64,000 nt of DNA from Spirochaetia bacterium (GCA_963662795.1 OY759746.1:3008001-3072000); one strand, 5' to 3'. Positions 21,670 through 34,185 are shown, counted from the stretch's first letter. The notes: generated from the letters alone by a model not told the origin. Made by a program: numbers and translations.

Positions 21670-21688
21670 GCCAAAGTCCTAATAGACT

Positions 21689-21761
21689 GGGCCGCTAGCT
21701 CAGCTGGTAGAGCAACGCCCTTTTAAGGCGTGGGTCAATGGTTCGAATCCATTGCGGCTCA
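21689..21761 (+). tRNA. tRNA-Lys(UUU)
   Basis: Cloverleaf GGGCCGC/GCGGCTC; anticodon loop CTTTTAA; GGTTCGAATCC; CCA not encoded. Confidence 0.95.
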
Positions 21762-21815
21762 TACAGTACTTGATGGCTTGAATACTTTACTTGAATAATG
21801 CAGGTACTGCTTTAT

Positions 21816-21887
21816 GTCTCCTTCGTCTAGTGGTTAGGACAGTGGGTTTTCATCCCGCCAACAGGGGTTCGACTCCCCTAGGAGATA
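21816..21887 (+). tRNA. tRNA-Glu(UUC)
   Basis: Acceptor GTCTCCT/AGGAGAT; anticodon loop TTTTCAT; GGTTCGACTCC. Confidence 0.95.
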
Positions 21888-21894
21888 GTGATTT

Positions 21895-21930
21895 GGGGAT
21901 TTATCAAAACTGGTAAATCCCCATTTTTTT
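21895..21930 (+). terminator. Terminator of the tRNA pair
   Basis: GGGGATTTATCA-AAAC-TGGTAAATCCCC followed by a T run. Confidence 0.8.
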
Positions 21931-22088: not shown

Positions 22089-22132
22089 TTGACAAATAAT
22101 TATTGCCAGGGTTAGAATGAATGATAATCATT
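22089..22132 (+). promoter_or_regulatory. sigma70 promoter with an adjacent palindromic operator (Fur-box-like core)
   Basis: TTGACA (22089)-18 nt-TAGAAT (22113); AATGATAATCATT palindrome at 22120-22132. Confidence 0.55.
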
Positions 22133-22191
22133 TATATTTAAATGATACATGATTGTTTGACATCATGCATTTATCCTCAGAGGTTTGTTTT

Positions 22192-23304
22192 ATGGAAAAA
22201 AAAATGTTGTTTGCTCCTGGACCTGTTATTACTACTGAAAGAGTTAAAACAGCTGCTTTAATACCGGATATTTGCCACCGCAGCAAATATTTTGAAGAAA
22301 TATTATCTGAACTCCGGCCGAAAATACTGAAAATTTACAACTGTGACGATTCATATACTTCCGTAGTTATAAGCGGATCAGGAACCGCATCCAATGAATC
22401 GGTATATTCATCTCTTTGCGGCAGCAGTGATAAAGTATTGCTCATTACAAATGGTGAATTCGGAAACAGATTAAAAGATATTATCGAATGCTACAATATT
22501 AATTACAAAGAGCTGAAATATGAATGGGGAGAATATCCTGATTGTGAAGATATCGAAAAAATCCTGAAAACAGATAAAGAAATAACAATTGTCGGGATGG
22601 TTTGTCATGAGACCAGCACCGGAATAATCAATCCGGTGAAAGATGTTGGAAATTTATGCAAAAAATACAGTAAATTGTTTTTTCTTGATTCAATCAGCGC
22701 CGTCGGCGGAGAATACCTTGATTTCAGTGAGTATAATGTTGATGTGTGTACTGGAGTGCCGAATAAATGTGTCTCAGGGCATCCCGGTACTTCTTTTCTT
22801 GTCTTAAGAAAAAATCTGATACAAAAAGCCTATGATACAAAGCCCCGGAATATCTATTTAAATCTGGGGAGACATATAAAAATCGCTGAAGAAAAAAACC
22901 AGACCCCAAATACTCCTTCGGTAATAATGATTAATGTTTTACTCGAATCAATTAAAGAGCTGCTTGAAGAAGGAGTCGAAAACAGGATCAGAAGATATAA
23001 AAAACTGGCCCGGATAATACGAGATGGATTATCCGAAATGGGACTGGAAATATTTTTAACTGATCCTGCTCAGATGGCAAATACTGTTACAACAGTATAT
23101 CTACCCAAAAAAATACCAATGAATGTGTTTTTAACTGAAATGGAAAATGAAGGGTATGTATTTTACGATGGAAAAGGCGATCTGAAATCAAAAAATCTTT
23201 TTCAGATAGCAAATATGGGAAATCTTGACGAGAAAGACTGCCGCGAAATGTTAAAGGTACTGAAGAAGGTTTTGATAAAAAAATTCAATTATGAAGTTAC
23301 TTGA
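22192..23304 (+). CDS. PLP-dependent class V aminotransferase (AEP-transaminase / serine-pyruvate-like)
   Basis: FAPGP, DICHR, GSGT, NGEFG, HETSTG, LDSIS, PLP lysine in PNKC; ATG 22192 has an AGAGG RBS. Confidence 0.85.
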   Translation: MEKKMLFAPGPVITTERVKTAALIPDICHRSKYFEEILSELRPKILKIYNCDDSYTSVVISGSGTASNESVYSSLCGSSDKVLLITNGEFGNRLKDIIECYNINYKELKYEWGEYPDCEDIEKILKTDKEITIVGMVCHETSTGIINPVKDVGNLCKKYSKLFFLDSISAVGGEYLDFSEYNVDVCTGVPNKCVSGHPGTSFLVLRKNLIQKAYDTKPRNIYLNLGRHIKIAEEKNQTPNTPSVIMINVLLESIKELLEEGVENRIRRYKKLARIIRDGLSEMGLEIFLTDPAQMANTVTTVYLPKKIPMNVFLTEMENEGYVFYDGKGDLKSKNLFQIANMGNLDEKDCREMLKVLKKVLIKKFNYEVT

Positions 23305-23403
23305 TTTTTTGGCTATTAAAATTCTCATGTTTGAGAATTGAAATAAAATAGTTTGGGGGATTTTTATGAAAAAGATTTTTTATTTTTTTACTGGAGGTTT
23401 AAA

Positions 23404-24495
23404 ATGAAAAAAAAGTATCTAAGTCGTCTATTTTTAATTATCGGCATGGCAGCAATTGTAGCTTTTGCGGCTGTAACATTTACCGGCTGCGCCCAGAAAG
23501 CAGGAGGAAGTGAAACAGCACAGACAAAAAAAGATACAATCAAATGGCGCTTGCAGACATATGCCGGTCCATCAATGAATGATGATATTATTGGCAACAA
23601 AATCAAGGAATTTAACAAAATTGCTGACGGAGAGATGGTAATTGAGATGTTCGGAGCTGATCAGCTCGTCCCTCATGGAGAGTTATTTAACGCTGTTCAA
23701 AAAGGTACTATAGATATGGCAGTCAGCGATGATGAATCTATGGGCTCACCGGCGGATGTAGCAGTATTTTCCGCATATTTTCCAGCAGCCGGAAGAATTG
23801 GACTTGATATTGATGTTTTATGGAATCGTTACGGTTTGAATGAAATCTGGAAAGAAGCTTATGATGAGATTGATGGTGTTACCTGGCTTGCTCAGGGTAG
23901 TTGGGACCCTTGTCTTGTAGCTAGCAATAAACCAATTAGAAAAGTAGAAGATCTTAAAGGCTTAAGACTTTTTACTTCTCTTTTTAATGGAAAATTTCTT
24001 GAAGCAGAATATGGTGTTGTTCCTGTTGTAATGCCTGTGGAAGATGTTCAAATGGCACTCCAGACCGGAATGCTTGATGGTGTTACCTGGTCGGGTGCAA
24101 CTGAGCTTTACACAACAGGGATTGCTGATGTTTGTAAATATTTGCTGACCAATCCAATTTCCGGCGCATGGTCCGGGGGTTTCTTTGTAAATACAAAGTC
24201 ATGGGAAGCTGTTCCTGAACGCCTTCAGAGGCTGCTTCTTTTGACAATTGAAAGTTCGAACTATTACAGACTGAACTGGTATTGGTGGGGAGAAGCACGG
24301 TACAGAGCAGAAGGCAGCAAAATGGAGCTTACATCAATTCCTGACAGCCAGTGGACAGGCGTTGAAGTCCAGGCTAATAAATACTGGGATGAATTTTCCA
24401 AGAAAAGCCCAAGGTCAGCAAGAGTTATTGAAGCATTTAAAAAGTACTCAGCTATCAGAGAGAAAGCCGGTGCGCCTTACACCAGCGGTAAGTAA
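23404..24495 (+). CDS. TRAP transporter solute-binding lipoprotein (DctP family)
   Basis: Lipobox FTGC; KWRLQT, ELFNAVQKGTIDM, KPIRKVEDLKGLR, ALQTGMLDG. Confidence 0.9.
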   Translation: MKKKYLSRLFLIIGMAAIVAFAAVTFTGCAQKAGGSETAQTKKDTIKWRLQTYAGPSMNDDIIGNKIKEFNKIADGEMVIEMFGADQLVPHGELFNAVQKGTIDMAVSDDESMGSPADVAVFSAYFPAAGRIGLDIDVLWNRYGLNEIWKEAYDEIDGVTWLAQGSWDPCLVASNKPIRKVEDLKGLRLFTSLFNGKFLEAEYGVVPVVMPVEDVQMALQTGMLDGVTWSGATELYTTGIADVCKYLLTNPISGAWSGGFFVNTKSWEAVPERLQRLLLLTIESSNYYRLNWYWWGEARYRAEGSKMELTSIPDSQWTGVEVQANKYWDEFSKKSPRSARVIEAFKKYSAIREKAGAPYTSGK

Positions 24496-24518
24496 ATAAT
24501 AAGTTGAAAATATTTAAT

Positions 24519-24548
24519 ATCTAATCCTGGAGAGATTCAGGATTAGAT
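24519..24548 (+). other. Intercistronic hairpin after the binding-protein gene (likely mRNA-stabilising)
   Basis: ATCTAATCCTGGA-GAGA-TTCAGGATTAGAT, 13-bp stem with a GNRA loop and no long T run. Confidence 0.55.
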
Positions 24549-24631
24549 TATAACACTGCCTTATTTTATTGCTGTTTATAAGGAATACGGCAGGGATTTT
24601 CAGTAAAACGACAAATGGAGGAGTGGAATTT

Positions 24632-25177
24632 TTGATTAACCCAATAAAAATTTACGTAAAGTCCATGGATTCAATAAGCATCCTGATAGGCAATATTGTA
24701 AAATTCCTTGTTTTGTTAATGATAGCTGTATTGGCTTATGAAGCTGTCTCAAGGAATATTTTTGGTAATTCCAATAAATGGTCTTTGGAGATAACTCAAT
24801 TTATTAACGGAACCTATTATTTGCTGGGCGGAGCTTATGTCTATCTTATAGGCGGGCATGTAAGAATGGATTTTTTTTATGAAAGATGGTCCCGAAGAAA
24901 AAAAGCCATTATCGATATTTGTACTTTTATATTAAGTTTGGCATATCTGACAGGTCTGTTAATTGGAGGGATTTCCAGTTCTTATTATGCGGTAAAATAC
25001 AATCAGACAAATTATTCGGCATGGGGCCCTCCTATAGCCCCAATGAAGATTATTGCTACAATAGGTATAATTTTAATGTTATTACAGAATATATCAGAAC
25101 TTATTAAGGATATCGTAATAGCTTTTGGCAAAGATAGTTCCTGGATAAAGAATTGGAGTATAGATAATGAGTTTTGA
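24632..25177 (+). CDS. TRAP transporter small permease (DctQ)
   Basis: YEAVSR, WSLEI, GGAY, HVRMD; 4 TM; probable TTG start after GGAGG. Confidence 0.85.
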   Translation: MINPIKIYVKSMDSISILIGNIVKFLVLLMIAVLAYEAVSRNIFGNSNKWSLEITQFINGTYYLLGGAYVYLIGGHVRMDFFYERWSRRKKAIIDICTFILSLAYLTGLLIGGISSSYYAVKYNQTNYSAWGPPIAPMKIIATIGIILMLLQNISELIKDIVIAFGKDSSWIKNWSIDNEF

Positions 25178-26486
25178 ATTTATTGCTTTATTAATGTTTC
25201 TTACGATGTTTGTTACACTTTTGTCGGGACGTCATATTTATGCCGTTATAGGCGGAGTCGCGGCTATTTTCTCAATAATACTTTGGGGAACCGGTGGAAT
25301 AGATATGGGGTACCATTCTGCTTTTAAGCTTATAAACTGGTATCCTTTGGTAACGCTGCCGATTTTTGTATTTATAGGGTATTTGTTTTCCGCATCAAAA
25401 ATATCTGAGGATTTGTACCGCCTGATTCATGTTTTAACAGGTCCTCTTAGGGGAGGATTGGCCATTGGTACCATTGTCCTGATGGCAATTATATCGGCAA
25501 TAAATGGTTTAAGTGTAGCAGGTATGAGTGTCGGAAGCAGTGTTGCCCTGCCGGAAATGCTGAAGAAGAATTATGATAAAAAAATGGTAACCGGAGTAAT
25601 TCAGGCGGGGAGCTCTCTTGGTATTCTGATTCCTCCCAGTGTAGTTCTTGTTCTCTATGGAATGATCGCAAGACAACCTGTGGGACATCTCTGGCTGGCA
25701 GGTGTTTTCCCCGGTCTTTTAATGTCTGCTTTATTTGTTCTTTATATTGTAGTCCGGTGCTGGTTTCAGCCGGAACTGGGACCGGTTTTGCCGAGGGAAG
25801 AATGGGATATACCTGTTATGGAAAAGGTAAAAGCTCTCAGGGGCGGATTACTTCCTTTATTTATAATATTGATGATGTCGGGACTTTTTTTACTGGGAGT
25901 AACCAGCCTTGTCGAAAGTTCAGCTATTGGGGCTATCGCAACAATAATTGCAGCAGGAATCAAGAAGCGGTTGAACTGGAAAATACTTAATAGCGTTTTA
26001 ACAAACACATTAAATGTCAGCGGCATGTTTATGTGGGTTGCCATGTCGGCAATGGCCTTTGCTGCAATTTTTGACGGACTTGGAGCTGTTCATGCGATAT
26101 CAACATTGTTTTTGAGTCATGGTTTTGGTCCAATTGGTACGATTATTGCTATGCAGGTTTCATTTTTATTATTAGGCACTTTCCTCGATGATACAGCCAT
26201 GTTGATTATAGTCGCTCCTTTATATATCCCTCTGGTGGTTACTTTAGGTTTTAATCCGATATGGTATGGTGTTCTTTATACGATAACCTGTCAGATAGCG
26301 TATCTTACACCGCCGTTTGGATATAATCTTTTTCTCATGAAGGCGATGGCTCCAAAGGAAATCAGTCTTAGTGATATCTATCGTTCTATTGTTCCTTTTA
26401 TATTTCTCATGATTTTAACGATAGTTATATTAATTATATTTCCGGAAATTGCTACCTGGTTACCTGATTTATATTTTTCGAAATAA
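25167..26486 (+). CDS. TRAP transporter large permease (DctM)
   Basis: LGILIPPS, AGVFPGL, GFNPIWYG, LTPPFGYNLF, FPEIATWLP. Confidence 0.92.
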   Translation: MSFEFIALLMFLTMFVTLLSGRHIYAVIGGVAAIFSIILWGTGGIDMGYHSAFKLINWYPLVTLPIFVFIGYLFSASKISEDLYRLIHVLTGPLRGGLAIGTIVLMAIISAINGLSVAGMSVGSSVALPEMLKKNYDKKMVTGVIQAGSSLGILIPPSVVLVLYGMIARQPVGHLWLAGVFPGLLMSALFVLYIVVRCWFQPELGPVLPREEWDIPVMEKVKALRGGLLPLFIILMMSGLFLLGVTSLVESSAIGAIATIIAAGIKKRLNWKILNSVLTNTLNVSGMFMWVAMSAMAFAAIFDGLGAVHAISTLFLSHGFGPIGTIIAMQVSFLLLGTFLDDTAMLIIVAPLYIPLVVTLGFNPIWYGVLYTITCQIAYLTPPFGYNLFLMKAMAPKEISLSDIYRSIVPFIFLMILTIVILIIFPEIATWLPDLYFSK

Positions 26487-26509
26487 GAGAAATAATATTG
26501 AGAATAAAG

Positions 26510-28009
26510 ATGAACGAATATATTTTATCAATAGACCAGGGAACAACTGCTACAAAAGTGGTCCTCTACACCTTAAATGGGGATATTATGGCAATAAGCA
26601 CTCAGCCTGTTAAGCAGTATTATCCTCAGGACGGATGGGTGGAGCATGATCCCTATAATATCCTTGATTCCATAAAAATTGGAATCAGGGATATATTATG
26701 CAAAACTGAAATAACGAAAGATCAAATACTCGCTATTGGAATAGATAATCAGGGCGAAACAATAATTCCTTTTGATCGAAAAACCGGGGAACCATTATAT
26801 AATGCCATAGTCTGGCAGGATAGAAGGACCAGTCAATTCTGCAACCGGATGAAAGATGTTCTTGATGAAGCAATTATTACAGAAAAGACAGGGTTATTCC
26901 TTGATCCCTATTTTTCAGCACCCAAAATGAACTGGCTGATAAAAAACGTTGATAAAGTGAAAGAATCAATCAATAAAGGAAACGCAGTTATTGCAACATC
27001 GGATGTGTGGTTGTTGTATATGATAACAGGCAGACAATCGATAATGACTGATGTTACAACAGCTTCGAGAACATTATTGTTCAATATCAACGAATTGCAA
27101 TGGGATAATGAACTACTGGAATTATTTGAAATTCCTGAAAATGTGCTGCCGAAAATAGTGCCGTCTTCCTGGTTTTTTGGATTATCTGACCCTTCGGTAT
27201 GCGAAGGAATATCTGCACCTATTCATTCATCTGTGGTAGATCAGCAGGCTTCTCTTTTTGGCCACACGTGTTTTAATAAAGGAGAAGCCAAGATTACTTA
27301 CGGTACAGGAGGATTCCTGTTACTTAACACGGGTAAAGAAAGACTGAAATTAAATGACAGGATTTCTACAACAATTGCAGCTCAATATAATGATGAGATA
27401 AATTATGCCATAGACGGCGGAGTATATTGTGTCGCGTCCTGTATAAACTGGCTTATTAACGAATTGAAAATTGTATCCAGTCCGCAGGAATTAAGTGAGA
27501 TAAAATTTGATTTAAAAAATCCCTGCAGCACCTATTTTGTTCCATCAATGGCCGGTATTTCTGCACCATACTGGAAATCCGACTTGAAAGGAGCTTTTTT
27601 AGGATTATCACTTAATACAGGAGGGAATGATTTAATCAGGGCCATGATAGAGGGTATTGCCTACAGGTTTATGGATCTTGTTGAAATTATCAGAAATAAC
27701 GGGTTCGGGGAAATCTCATCAATATCTGTTGACGGCGGGGTAAGCAGAAATGATTTTCTTATGCAGTACCAGTCTGATCTTCTGGGTGTGAAAATGCAGA
27801 GACCTGCTGTACGTGAAACAACTTCACTGGGTTCTTTTTATCTGGCTGGATTGAAAACCGGAATATGGAATGATGTGAAGTCATTAAAAGAGAAAAAAGT
27901 AGATGAAAAAATATTTATACCGGAAAGTAATAATTCAGAAATAATACAAAACTATATAATATGGCAGAAAGCAGTAAAAGCAATTATTAACTGGCATGAT
28001 AGTTTTTAA
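26510..28009 (+). CDS. FGGY-family, glycerol kinase-like kinase with an altered substrate pocket
   Basis: IDQGTT, GWVEHDP, NAIVWQDRR, LDPYFS, TASRT, DQQA, YGTG, VDGG; DNQGET in place of TNQRET. Confidence 0.85.
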   Translation: MNEYILSIDQGTTATKVVLYTLNGDIMAISTQPVKQYYPQDGWVEHDPYNILDSIKIGIRDILCKTEITKDQILAIGIDNQGETIIPFDRKTGEPLYNAIVWQDRRTSQFCNRMKDVLDEAIITEKTGLFLDPYFSAPKMNWLIKNVDKVKESINKGNAVIATSDVWLLYMITGRQSIMTDVTTASRTLLFNINELQWDNELLELFEIPENVLPKIVPSSWFFGLSDPSVCEGISAPIHSSVVDQQASLFGHTCFNKGEAKITYGTGGFLLLNTGKERLKLNDRISTTIAAQYNDEINYAIDGGVYCVASCINWLINELKIVSSPQELSEIKFDLKNPCSTYFVPSMAGISAPYWKSDLKGAFLGLSLNTGGNDLIRAMIEGIAYRFMDLVEIIRNNGFGEISSISVDGGVSRNDFLMQYQSDLLGVKMQRPAVRETTSLGSFYLAGLKTGIWNDVKSLKEKKVDEKIFIPESNNSEIIQNYIIWQKAVKAIINWHDSF

Positions 28010-28115
28010 ATCTGAATATGCTTTAATAATTTTAACAACCTTTTTATCTGAAAATTCAGGGTTTCAGACTTGGCAACATTTATCAGTTCTATATAATTAC
28101 TGAAGGTTGGGATCT

Positions 28116-29054
28116 ATGAACATCGAACATCTTAAAATTTTTTATTATACTGCGAAATTTAAAAATTTTACTAAAGCTGCTGAATTTTTAAATATTACTC
28201 AACCGTCTGTAACAAGACTGATCTATGAATTCCAGGATAAACTTGGCCTTGTTTTGATTAATAAAAACGGAAAAAGCTTTGTACTGACAGATCCCGGTAA
28301 AAAAATTTATGAAATGGCTGAAAAAATATTTGAAATAGAATTAAAAATTGAAGAATGCGTCAGAGACATAAAACAGCAGAAATCAGGAATTATAAATATA
28401 TTAACAACAGAGACATACGGCGCTCATTTTATGCCGGAATTTCTGGTTGAATACAAGAGGCTGTATCCCGGAATTTTATTAAATGTAACAACCTTGCCCA
28501 ATGATCAGGTAGTTGAACTTACAAGCCATCTTGAATGTGATTTCGGAATTATATCAAAAAAACTTAAAAACCAGAAATTACTTGTAAAAAATCTTCTTGA
28601 GGAAAAAATTGTTCTTATATCGGCGCCTGGTAAACCTCTGGCGAAACGAAAGGAATTAAGCCCTCAGGAAGTAAACAATCTTCCAATTATTTTGTTTGAA
28701 GAAGAATGCGGCACAAACGAAGCTGTCATGAAATTCAAGAAAAAAAATAATCTGGAATTCGATGTAAGATGTATATTTTCCAACAGCGAATCAGTAAAAA
28801 GCCTTGTGAAAAAAGGACTTGGGTACGCGTTTATATCAAGAAATGTTATTAAAAATGAGGTTGCCAGAAATGAACTTGTTGAAATCAACGTACTTGATGA
28901 GACTCTTGTAAGGCAGTTTTATATTATTTATCATAAAGAAAAATATATCTCCAATACATTAAAGACTTTTATTGATATCATGATTGAGTGGTCTGATAAA
29001 TATACAGAAAAAATAAAACAGGAAATAACACGAATTAATTTAAAAAAGTCATAA
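28116..29054 (+). CDS. LysR-family transcriptional regulator
   Basis: NFTKAAEFLNITQPSVT HTH; LTDPGK; VKKGLGYAFIS; own promoter-like TTGGCA-16-TATAAT at 28070-28097. Confidence 0.9.
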   Translation: MNIEHLKIFYYTAKFKNFTKAAEFLNITQPSVTRLIYEFQDKLGLVLINKNGKSFVLTDPGKKIYEMAEKIFEIELKIEECVRDIKQQKSGIINILTTETYGAHFMPEFLVEYKRLYPGILLNVTTLPNDQVVELTSHLECDFGIISKKLKNQKLLVKNLLEEKIVLISAPGKPLAKRKELSPQEVNNLPIILFEEECGTNEAVMKFKKKNNLEFDVRCIFSNSESVKSLVKKGLGYAFISRNVIKNEVARNELVEINVLDETLVRQFYIIYHKEKYISNTLKTFIDIMIEWSDKYTEKIKQEITRINLKKS

Positions 29055-32837: not shown

Positions 32838-32886
32838 TAAAGTAAATACAGCACTACTGTCTGTATATCAAGTTCAGGAGTTTTTG

Positions 32887-33357
32887 ATGAATAAAAAGAT
32901 GATTCTGATATTGGTTTTACTGTTTTTAATATCTGCTTTTTCAGTTTTCGCGGAATCATTTGGAGAGACAAGGCTAGGGTTTGGTTTCGGGATGCCGAAT
33001 ACTGTTCTCATGTTTCAGACCGGACCTTATGATATAAAGGTCGGTTATGATTTTACAGAGGGAAGCGAATATTTCTTTCTGAATGGTTCCTATATGGTTA
33101 TTAATTCCAGGCCGATAAATGAGATCTTCAGCGGTACTCTCGGGATAGGACTTTTCGGAAAAGTCTCATTTGCCGATGAAAATGAAAATGACTTTATCGG
33201 GGGGCTTAATATTCCCATGACAGGTGAGGCGGCGCTGCTTGACGGATTCCTTGAACTGTTTGCCACTGTCGCACCTGCTGTGGAACTGTTCCCGAAACCG
33301 GTATTTACAACACGGGCTATCAGCTGGTGGATTGGTTTTTCAATCATGCTTGATTGA
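32887..33357 (+). CDS. Small exported protein, probable outer-membrane beta-barrel
   Basis: Signal peptide; alternating Gly/aromatic beta-strands (LGFGFG, LGIGLFG, LELF); C-terminal WWIGFSI. Confidence 0.5.
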   Translation: MNKKMILILVLLFLISAFSVFAESFGETRLGFGFGMPNTVLMFQTGPYDIKVGYDFTEGSEYFFLNGSYMVINSRPINEIFSGTLGIGLFGKVSFADENENDFIGGLNIPMTGEAALLDGFLELFATVAPAVELFPKPVFTTRAISWWIGFSIMLD

Positions 33358-33369
33358 TCCTCTGTGCCG

Positions 33370-34185
33370 CTATGTGTAAATAAAGTATTTTACAATACTG
33401 TTTACCGTGTCGGTTATATTGCTGAAATCAAATTTTACGCACTTTTCAGGGAATGAGGAAAATAAATAATTTTCACAATCCCTGAAGTTTTTTAATTTCT
33501 GCTGTATTGATGTTTCACCCTCTGTCGTCCTGAAAAATTCATTCCCGCAGATAAGACATCCGCTTTTTCCCTCGTAATCCGGTTCTGAAAAACTGTTGAT
33601 ATTGCCGCATTCTGTGCATATCTGGAATTTCATGTGGTCTGGCTCTGATCCGGCTTTCGGATTATTGATGATTATGCATCTGTCAAACTGGAATTTCCCC
33701 AGCATCTCCTCAATAAAGTCAATATTATTGCTGTTGCTCAGGAACATAAAATGATTTGAAAGATTCTCCGCTTTGATTTTCGCATCAATTCTTTCCATAA
33801 GCTTTTCAGGGGAGAGTGCGTTTTCAATTCTAAGCTGTTCACTCATAAAAACAGGCAGCTTCAGTACAAGAGAAAGCCGCTGTGATATCAGTTCAGTTTT
33901 AATAAATGGATTTCCTGTAATAAAGAGGTTTAGTTTTGTTTGACGTATAAATGGAAAACCTTTTTTATTGAGATCAAATATTATTTTACACTTCAATGAC
34001 CCAATGTGCATTTCTTCTATATTGTAAAATTTGCCGCATATCCCGCATTTTCCTGTCTTTTCGGTACAATCCGTACAGCAGTACAGTGTCTTTCCTTTTA
34101 AATCTGTTTCAATGTATTTACCGCAATTTACACAGTTGCTGTAAGAGATTTTTTCAGTTATTTCTGCCGTAACACTATCTGCCAT
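33370..34185 (-). CDS. Zinc-finger protein fused to a degenerate adenylate kinase-like domain
   Basis: N-terminal CVNC...CCTDC...CGIC; LFITGNPFIKTE at the P-loop position; lid-like CTECG...CLICG. Confidence 0.55.
   Translation of the reverse strand: MADSVTAEITEKISYSNCVNCGKYIETDLKGKTLYCCTDCTEKTGKCGICGKFYNIEEMHIGSLKCKIIFDLNKKGFPFIRQTKLNLFITGNPFIKTELISQRLSLVLKLPVFMSEQLRIENALSPEKLMERIDAKIKAENLSNHFMFLSNSNNIDFIEEMLGKFQFDRCIIINNPKAGSEPDHMKFQICTECGNINSFSEPDYEGKSGCLICGNEFFRTTEGETSIQQKLKNFRDCENYLFSSFPEKCVKFDFSNITDTVNSIVKYFIYT

Follow-up and report, generated by a model that had tools for sequence, protein, structure and literature searches.

A six-gene operon in the genome of a Spirochaetia bacterium would, on our reading of its protein sequences, import a small primary amino alcohol, phosphorylate it, and then remove the nitrogen from the resulting phospho-ester in a reaction that depends on pyridoxal 5'-phosphate (PLP); we place the probability of this reading slightly above even (roughly 0.55). 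The operon occupies positions 22192 to 29054 of a 64,000-nucleotide stretch (GCA_963662795.1 OY759746.1:3008001-3072000; hereafter the window), which is G000:C1:3008001-3072000 of a single-contig genome of 3.93 Mb (G, C and L numbers are our labels for genomes, contigs and loci). In the proposed scheme, a transporter of the tripartite ATP-independent periplasmic (TRAP) class with a non-carboxylate, ethanolamine-type binding protein would bring in a cationic substrate; a paralogue of glycerol kinase with a charge-altered pocket (Arg83 to Gly, residue 80 to Asp) would phosphorylate a hydroxyl of this substrate; a PLP enzyme derived from AepZ/PhnW would strip the nitrogen from the O-phospho-amino alcohol; and a LysR protein would regulate the unit. 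The losses of Arg and the linkage of the two enzymes, described below, support the idea in the original prediction of a self-contained unit that takes up and breaks down a small cationic amino alcohol.

Six co-oriented open reading frames (ORFs) fill positions 22153-29054 of the plus strand, and both the ORFs and their Pfam matches bear out the earlier description of a single unit of class V aminotransferase, TRAP P, Q and M subunits, glycerol-kinase homologue and LysR regulator. The unit begins at 22192, an ATG that agrees with the N termini of orthologues, and ends at 29054, the stop of the LysR gene:

22192..23304, plus strand: class V PLP enzyme (AepZ/PhnW-derived), 370 aa; PF00266, 76 bits
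23353..24495, plus strand: TRAP solute-binding lipoprotein (DctP); PF03480, 85.6 bits; likely start at 23404 (MKKK)
24569..25177, plus strand: TRAP small membrane subunit (DctQ); PF04290, 75 bits; 74-77% identity in genus g4
25167..26486, plus strand: TRAP large membrane subunit (DctM); PF06808, 227 bits; 88-89% identity in genus g4
26498..28009, plus strand: GlpK-derived FGGY kinase, the proposed amino-alcohol kinase; FGGY_N and FGGY_C
28107..29054, plus strand: LysR-family regulator; HTH_1 and LysR_substrate; no NCBIfam equivalog reached

The binding protein is probably of the non-carboxylate, ethanolamine-binding TRAP type. Its nearest solved chains are 4uab and 4xf5 (E 9e-111), which we take to be Csal_0678 with ethanolamine and (S)-2-amino-1-propanol, and every other TRAP binding protein matched at E 2e-15 or worse. 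The equivalent of Arg147 of SiaP is a Phe, so the carboxylate-binding Arg is missing, as had been claimed; in the alignment this Phe falls on the carboxylate-binding Arg of both 4yzz (nmRigg) and 5cm6 (kmRipg), and 4uab has the same Phe. According to the accessible part of PMC4646407, Csal_0678 has no Arg147 equivalent and binds ethanolamine; its homologue EtoX, according to the accessible part of PMC10132767, binds ethanolamine with a Kd of 7.9 µM and works with the gamma-glutamyl pathway. We took the e-60 similarity cut-off for the ethanolamine-binder family from the same part of PMC10132767: the operon's protein has the DctP fold and a similarity to 4uab/4xf5 beyond e-60, which places it in this family of 2093 proteins (E <= 1e-60).

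Within this family, the protein belongs to a small subclade. Among the best 120 matches, 13 have FTSLFNG or FASLFSG (with one extra residue), MPVED and TEL, and these 13 take in the operon's protein and all matches of at least 68% identity. The remaining 107 have mostly YMFPTGG (87) and LPYED (71), and the third motif over all 120 is TED (86), TEV (13), TEL (13, the subclade) or has another residue (8). The three co-varying motifs of the subclade adjoin the strands of the Arg147 and Asn187 equivalents. The genome encodes a second TRAP P/Q/M of the same family (C1:784437-787489), with canonical motifs and a binding protein, encoded at C1:784437-785525, that is 61% identical to that of the operon. 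There is no kinase or PLP enzyme beside this second system (L019, G000:C1:782937-787019; C1:778610-789967), which is preceded by GntR, octopine-dehydrogenase-like and Asp/Glu-racemase-like genes; then come a split transketolase and RpiB. The octopine-dehydrogenase-like gene is 40% identical to one that adjoins the kinase and PLP-enzyme genes in another genome (L027), and a further homologue adjoins the kinase gene in G091.

The kinase matches E. coli GlpK from end to end (E 2e-131) and is ~40-45% identical to the solved GlpKs over the whole length. As the original prediction held, it has lost a conserved Arg: Arg83 of E. coli GlpK is replaced by Gly, and residue 80 is Asp (DNQGET vs NQRET), with the other contacts intact (E84, W103, Y135, D245, Q246 and F270 in the alignment). 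We take Arg83 to be a glycerol-binding residue, and the others to be glycerol-contact or catalytic residues. The score of the kinase against the GlpK equivalog TIGR01311 is below the cut-off (529.2 bits vs 590.35) and that against the broader subfamily model NF000756 above it (559 vs 498); a canonical GlpK (NQRET) is encoded elsewhere in the genome (C1:190959-192458).

The Arg83Gly change defines a kinase clade. Gly is present at position 83 in every aligned orthologue, and eight kinases from loci with the PLP enzyme have D(N/H)QGET in common, such that the Arg is lost and an Asp gained three residues earlier; the clostridial kinases have xNQGET in 5/5 parseable cases. The best 120 matches to the kinase comprised 50 proteins with xNQGET, 58 with NQRET and 12 that were unparsed. 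We examined a FastTree phylogeny of 129 sequences with a bipartition test, since a test based on the most recent common ancestor was uninformative owing to rooting, and found one split (support 0.78) with 63 Arg83 proteins and no Gly83 protein on one side and all 65 Gly83 proteins on the other. One clostridial Gly83 kinase (IDNQGET; L085:10619-12145) passes the GlpK equivalog cut-off (629 vs 590), and automatic annotation will thus name members of this clade glycerol kinase.

The PLP enzyme carries the third active-site change. Its nearest NCBIfam family is TIGR03301, of the AepZ/PhnW group, its nearest entries in the Protein Data Bank are 9kk8, 1m32 and 6pd1, and the PLP lysine is present (VPNK; the lysine of NKC aligns with 1m32 and 9kk8). 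The aminotransferase had been called atypical, and its scores fall below the cut-off of each NCBIfam equivalog compared (TIGR03301, 299.5/360.8; NF010006, 235.4/296; TIGR02326, 228.8/400.8); in its FQIANMG motif, moreover, Gln338 replaces the Arg of FRIGNIG (PhnW), FRIANIG (6pd1) and FRIGHMG (3zrp). This FRIG/FRIA Arg is common to PhnW, AepZ and serine-pyruvate aminotransferase, and in PhnW and alanine-glyoxylate aminotransferase it presumably binds the carboxylate of the acid substrate or 2-oxo acid. We found Gln at this position in 5/5 orthologues, 120/120 nearest homologues and 9/9 clostridial loci; the Arg to Gln change defines a PLP-enzyme clade. The plain transaminase reaction assumed at the outset becomes uncertain, since the 2-oxo-acid-binding Arg is missing. 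Near the N terminus is a DICHR motif, found as DxCHR in 117/120 nearest homologues and also in the genome's AepZ-like paralogue, in which the Arg is retained. This motif is similar to the SHR loop in the SerC proteins of the same genome, a His-Arg loop which we take to bind phosphate.

The kinase and the PLP enzyme form a stable core that is linked across phyla, around which transporters of cation and amine families are swapped. A pattern-seeded scan of species genomes yielded 38 loci, of which 30, at 43-95% identity, were spread over Spirochaetota, Desulfobacterales, Anaerolineales/Chloroflexota, Oscillospiraceae and Eisenbacteria. The pair occurs in genomes from sludge, sediment, groundwater and gut in several phyla, and the check on gene co-occurrence that had been called for gave a positive answer for these two enzymes, with both genes present together in genomes of Spirochaetota, Clostridia and Desulfobacterota. 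We scanned 23 loci with Pfam (L045 was too short, L047 was omitted, and the others duplicated earlier loci) and found the following arrangements:

L027: TAXI-TRAP, GntR, kinase, PLP enzyme, octopine-dehydrogenase-like and transaldolase-like genes
L028: kinase, PLP enzyme, APC permease
L029: kinase, TRAP P, Q and M, PLP enzyme, Metallophos phosphoesterase
L036, L039, L044: PLP enzyme, ABC system with PotD-like binding protein, Metallophos; GntR in L036 and L039
L030, L048: the same ABC layout, with no Metallophos detected
L042: APH/choline-kinase-family kinase in place of the FGGY kinase, dimethylglycine-dehydrogenase-like (DMGDH-like) and transaldolase-like genes, PLP enzyme, ABC system
L043, L046: DMGDH-like and transaldolase-like genes, PLP enzyme, ABC system
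L031, L034, L035, L037, L040, L041: other FGGY kinases, with M81/MlrC or Phosphodiest genes
L033, L051: MTTB adjoining the PLP enzyme

Further transporters beside the pair are an APC permease (L079) and an ABC system with a PotD-like binding protein (L050). Among 400 Clostridia genomes the PLP enzyme was present in 7, and in 6/9 clostridial loci a kinase of the Gly83 type is directly adjacent to it. In one of these (L085), EutH follows the kinase in the operon (score 546 vs the NCBIfam cut-off of 482), and the same genome (G724) has a separate full eut locus with EutB and another EutH. Ethanolamine, which the original prediction had listed last among its alternatives, gains support from this kinase-EutH operon by the PLP enzyme in a clostridial genome. 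Other clostridial arrangements comprise two Fe-alcohol dehydrogenases with an Arg-bearing TRAP (L082) and an OCD-family gene with an Arg-bearing TRAP (L086).

This linkage bears on the ordinary reading, in which a glycerol kinase, a 2-aminoethylphosphonate (AEP) transaminase and an unrelated TRAP lie side by side with no joint pathway. The public automatic names, 'glycerol kinase' and '2-aminoethylphosphonate-pyruvate transaminase', agree with it, as does the clostridial L085 kinase that exceeds the GlpK cut-off; nevertheless, the pair is kept across phyla with differing transporters, the genome has a separate canonical GlpK, both enzymes score under their family equivalog cut-offs and have no substrate Arg, and the unit contains no phosphonatase. 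We regard this reading as extremely unlikely.

The loci also bear on the order of the two reactions. In L036, L039 and L044 a Metallophos phosphoesterase stands in place of the kinase, which fits a phosphorylated substrate of the PLP enzyme, and hence the order originally proposed, phosphorylation before deamination. We considered the reverse order, in which the PLP enzyme would transaminate the free amino alcohol (e.g., serinol to dihydroxyacetone) and the kinase would then phosphorylate the carbonyl product. The gene order (PLP enzyme, P, Q, M, kinase) leaves the order of reactions unfixed, and E. coli GlpK accepts dihydroxyacetone and L-glyceraldehyde. However, for neutral trioses a kinase could keep Arg83 and do without Asp80, the PLP enzyme retains the DxCHR motif in common with phosphonate-handling AepZ-type enzymes, and a phosphoesterase takes the place of the kinase in several loci. 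We thus consider deamination as the first step highly improbable.

Several loci have further genes around the PLP enzyme. In three from Chloroflexota (L042, L043, L046), the Gln-bearing PLP enzyme occurs with a dimethylglycine-dehydrogenase-like protein (DAO-FAO_M-GCV_T) and a transaldolase-like gene, and the APH kinase of L042 is GntI/choline-kinase-like; the MttB-family methyltransferases that adjoin the PLP enzyme in L033 and L051 are of the non-pyrrolysine type. These five loci hint at demethylation of choline-type head groups that would feed the same PLP enzyme. A variant cluster that recurs in L031, L037, L041, L080, L083 and L084 combines the PLP enzyme and DeoR with a Dpp- or sugar-type ABC system, an M81/MlrC-like peptidase and a kinase of a second FGGY subfamily (TQWK motif; best match XylB).

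Among spirochaete relatives, G001 (93-98% identity) and three genomes of genus g4 have the six genes in the same order; in G039, from another family, the order is kinase, PLP enzyme, P, Q, M, with the LysR gene divergent from the kinase gene. The active-site substitutions are retained in every aligned orthologue. Between genera g1 and g4, the TRAP subunits are 81% (P), 74-77% (Q) and 88-89% (M) identical, and the other proteins 54-57% (PLP enzyme), 45-48% (kinase) and 40% (LysR, at the same position). Because the TRAP genes are far more alike than the enzymes and the regulator, these values suggest that the transporter cassette was recently exchanged between the two genera. In g4 (L009:5490-18775, L010, L011), the module is inserted between a Bmp/PnrA binding-protein gene and nucleoside ABC ATPase/permease genes, in a nucleoside ABC cluster that adjoins a pyrimidine nucleoside phosphorylase, a phosphopentomutase-like gene and a patatin-like phospholipase.

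Among 401 sampled genomes of the class, the PLP enzyme (E <= 1e-80) was present in 9, spanning 6/156 genera, and an FGGY kinase lay within ~7 kb in 9/9. In G047 (L066:4761-7051, G047:C38), both genes are decayed yet adjacent: the kinase gene has lost an internal stretch (residues ~274-364), and several stops or a frameshift interrupt that of the PLP enzyme. A comparison of the insertion site with G002 yielded no orthologous empty site, the best pyruvate-kinase match being only 43% identical. We propose that the unit is an accessory, laterally moving operon.

We then weighed which amino alcohol the operon might use and how its last step might proceed. Ethanolamine is the favored candidate, based on the EtoX-type and EutH transporters, its abundance and the loss of the 2-oxo-acid Arg; we rate it a little short of an even chance, with roughly two-thirds of that weight on a lyase reaction and the rest on a transaminase reaction. 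Serinol or aminopropanediol seems distinctly less likely, and the aminopropanols less likely still, on a par with all other substrates. Specifically, we tentatively suggest that ethanolamine would be converted to phosphoethanolamine and that the PLP enzyme would act on it as a phospho-lyase, yielding acetaldehyde, ammonium and phosphate, in what would be a B12-independent ethanolamine route. A phospho-lyase works without a 2-oxo acid, which would account for the missing carboxylate-binding Arg. PLP enzymes of this kind are on record: in the accessible text of PMC8154272, PbfA, an enzyme of transaminase-type annotation, acts as a 1,2-eliminating lyase, and in that of PMC9283133, AGXT2L1 is a lyase on phosphoethanolamine. 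It is also possible, if doubtful, that the Gly83 kinase clade and the Gln-bearing AepZ-like clade constitute a route for ethanolamine or a close analogue that needs no B12 and is widespread among anaerobes (Spirochaetota, Clostridia, Desulfobacterota, Chloroflexota), in which an FGGY kinase and then a class V phospho-lyase would yield an aldehyde, ammonium and phosphate.

A number of points count against this scheme. The derived subclade of the binding protein, together with the canonical 61% paralogue, may mean that the substrate is an analogue rather than ethanolamine, and so may the full eut locus of G724, present besides the second EutH next to the kinase. The otherwise complete glycerol cage of the kinase would suit a three-carbon substrate better than ethanolamine. 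Two loci (L082, L086) have an Arg-containing DctP-type TRAP beside the pair. The OCD/alanine-dehydrogenase-like genes near the pair (L027, G091, L086) fit a transaminase with an aldehyde-phosphate product better, and the transaldolase-like genes that adjoin the PLP enzyme in 4/23 scanned loci fit a transaminase over a lyase. Finally, the arguments from residues rest on the roles that we presume for Arg83, for the Arg of PhnW and alanine-glyoxylate aminotransferase, and for the SerC-like loop.

Some of these points favor the route first proposed for this operon, in which serinol or 3-amino-1,2-propanediol would be phosphorylated and the phospho-ester transaminated to dihydroxyacetone phosphate (DHAP) or glyceraldehyde-3-phosphate, which would enter glycolysis. 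The kinase pocket, with only Arg83 lost and Asp80 gained, is what a glycerol look-alike with an ammonium for one hydroxyl would require. The genome also encodes the canonical ethanolamine type, of which the operon's binding protein is a remodelled paralogue, a pattern that G724 repeats with its second EutH. Furthermore, the minimal module of transporter, kinase, PLP enzyme and regulator recurs without more enzymes, in keeping with a product that itself belongs to central metabolism; a hydrogen bond might form between the invariant Gln and a hydroxymethyl group; in L051, a GpsA-like gene is found two genes away from that of the PLP enzyme; and transamination of DHAP to serinol-phosphate is known in the biosynthetic direction, according to the accessible parts of PMC3222319 and PMC9283133. 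On the other hand, natural sources of serinol are few, as far as the accessible part of PMC3222319 goes, yet genomes with the pair come from sludge, sediment, groundwater and gut; transamination requires a 2-oxo acid, the binding Arg for which is gone in 120/120 homologues; the EutH linkage points to ethanolamine; and our literature search found no paper on serinol catabolism. No result singles out serinol, and its conversion to DHAP becomes one candidate only, for a route that we consider rather unlikely.

The transaldolase-like genes raise another alternative, in which phosphoethanolamine would be transaminated to phosphoglycolaldehyde, and a transaldolase or transketolase would pass this product to the pentose-phosphate pathway. 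Genes of this kind (355-401 aa) adjoin the PLP enzyme in L027, L042, L043 and L046 (4/23 loci), a 36%-identical homologue lies in an operon of this genome with GntR and a HisC-like aminotransferase, the OCD/alanine-dehydrogenase-like neighbours of the pair could replenish pyruvate, and a gene of the choline/ethanolamine-kinase family replaces the FGGY kinase in L042. No transaldolase is found, however, in any TRAP-type or minimal module, and the gene does not track the cluster (4/6 cluster-bearing relatives, 5/35 others); the 2-oxo-acid Arg is missing from the PLP enzyme; and phosphoglycolaldehyde is not known as a central metabolite. We judge this route improbable, and retain phosphorylation of ethanolamine or a similar amino alcohol followed by a lyase-type step as the favored version.

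Three further candidates were rejected: uptake of AEP, because the Arg is missing from the binding protein and a phosphonatase from the unit; taurine or isethionate, on the same grounds and because those routes have no kinase step; and direct action of the PLP enzyme on an N-methylated amine, because PLP chemistry needs a primary amine.

We examined the genome for other genes of amino-alcohol and aldehyde metabolism. EutB had 0 matches in this 98%-complete genome, with a positive E. coli control, and the genome-wide search for Gln-synt_C found one 710-aa frame only; thus, neither known ethanolamine route is encoded. The 8 matches to aldehyde dehydrogenases show only that aldehydes can be handled. 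Outside the window, at G000:C1:790944-796233, are two pairs in tandem, each with a gene for an APC permease and a choline/ethanolamine-kinase-like (APH) gene; they suggest that choline or ethanolamine is put to a separate use, perhaps in lipid or surface decoration. The GntR operon mentioned above (L060:7688-10906; G000:C1:462687-465905) encodes the HisC-like aminotransferase, which is under the hisC cut-off, and a 391-aa transaldolase-like protein, 36% identical to the Chloroflexota ones beside the PLP enzyme, and is a second pairing of such a protein with an aminotransferase. The distribution of the transaldolase-like gene in 9/41 relatives (4/6 with the cluster vs 5/35 without) makes it too weak as a cluster marker, and the genomes are interrelated, so we did not use it as support.

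The operon lies in a block of lower GC content (0.31-0.40 across 22-29 kb vs 0.39-0.45 in the flanks). Upstream are housekeeping genes (dapA, dapB, pta, bactofilin, TPR proteins and a MiaB-like radical-SAM enzyme), and downstream of the unit is pyruvate kinase. Other features are:

21688..21888, plus strand: tRNA-Lys(ttt) and tRNA-Glu(ttc), found with ARAGORN; upstream border of the lower-GC block
21894-21923, just 3' of the tRNA pair: terminator-like hairpin from a terminator scan
22089..22118, plus strand: promoter-like site TTGACA-18-TAGAAT (11/12) before the first gene; consensus match only
28070..28097, plus strand: promoter-like site TTGGCA-16-TATAAT (11/12) before the LysR gene; consensus match only

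Promoter-like sites number 35 in the region, against 29.7 expected. At 32884-34185 of the window are ORFs of 157 aa (plus strand) and 271 aa (minus strand) without a Pfam match at E <= 0.001. As the original prediction had stated, PhnX, PhnA, PhnY, glycerol-3-phosphate dehydrogenase, EutBC and a glutamine-synthetase-like gene are all missing from the unit, and we found none in its flanks. Likewise, no phosphonatase or phosphonate-synthesis gene is present in the unit or flanks, a search that for PhnX and PepM was not genome-wide, and the unit has no GlpF, GlpD or GlpA.

Ethanolamine and related head-group amines are major sources of nitrogen and carbon in guts, sludge and sediments, and the known ethanolamine routes need either B12 (Eut) or the four-enzyme gamma-glutamyl pathway. 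If our scheme is true, the use of amino alcohols would have to be read differently from the genomes of anaerobes, given a cofactor-light route of only two enzymes, and two large clades automatically named 'glycerol kinase', 'AEP-pyruvate transaminase' or 'alanine-glyoxylate aminotransferase' would be re-annotated. The matched charge changes in transporter, kinase and PLP enzyme would represent a retargeting from an anionic or neutral to a cationic substrate. The scheme is directly testable, since homologues of the PLP enzyme are named from the cultured Ihubacter massiliensis and Anaerovorax odorimutans.

The nearest known systems differ from the operon in one or more components. The B12-dependent Eut system is defined by EutB/EutC, which have no counterpart in the unit or its flanks. 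GlpK has the same domains as the operon's kinase, which differs by Gly83, Asp80, its sub-cut-off score and the lack of GlpF, GlpD and GlpA in the unit. PhnW and AepZ act with PhnX in catabolism and with PepM and Ppd in biosynthesis. They have in common with the operon's PLP enzyme the PLP lysine and the DxC(H/P)R and xIANxG motifs, the latter two of the AepZ type; the operon's enzyme is set apart by the clade-wide Arg to Gln change, its sub-cut-off scores, and a transporter that would suit a cation and not a phosphonate. The RtxA N-terminal domain and Cj1437, which we compare by description only, are aminotransferases that convert DHAP to serinol-phosphate, the reverse of the serinol reaction proposed for this operon, according to the accessible parts of PMC3222319 and PMC9283133; they are biosynthetic and use glutamate or alanine, whereas the operon's enzyme is without the 2-oxo-acid-binding Arg.

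The part of the system that is already known is the transporter family, together with the logic of a kinase followed by a PLP enzyme, which is realized with other protein families. The ethanolamine TRAP systems that work with the gamma-glutamyl pathway (the Csal_0678 cluster of Chromohalobacter salexigens and EtoVWX of Phaeobacter sp. MED193) have a tripartite P/Q/M transporter with a binding protein of the same family. The operon, unlike them, has a kinase and a PLP enzyme and no ethanolamine gamma-glutamylase, dehydrogenase or amidohydrolase, and its binding protein has FTSLFNG for YMFPTGG, MPVED for LPYED and TEL for TED of the canonical ethanolamine binders. Like the operon's binding protein, Csal_0678 has no Arg147 equivalent (PMC4646407). 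The label 'undescribed' in the original prediction thus does not hold for the transporter, a known ethanolamine-binding TRAP type (PMC4646407 and PMC10132767, as far as their accessible parts go); it may hold for the enzyme pair, in that our literature search turned up no account in which an FGGY kinase and a class V PLP enzyme act together on amino alcohols, although subscription papers and closed supplements may contain one.

The closest parallel in logic, if the favored version is right, is the route of a kinase and a phospho-lyase (human ETNPPL/AGXT2L1), with a lyase activity that we would expect here from sequence. A route of an amino-alcohol kinase and an O-phospho-amino-alcohol phospho-lyase reportedly operates in Erwinia and Mycobacterium as well. 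The known pair consists of a kinase of the APH/choline-kinase type and a lyase of the class III aminotransferase fold, whereas the operon has an FGGY kinase and a class V enzyme; these would be non-homologous replacements of both known steps.

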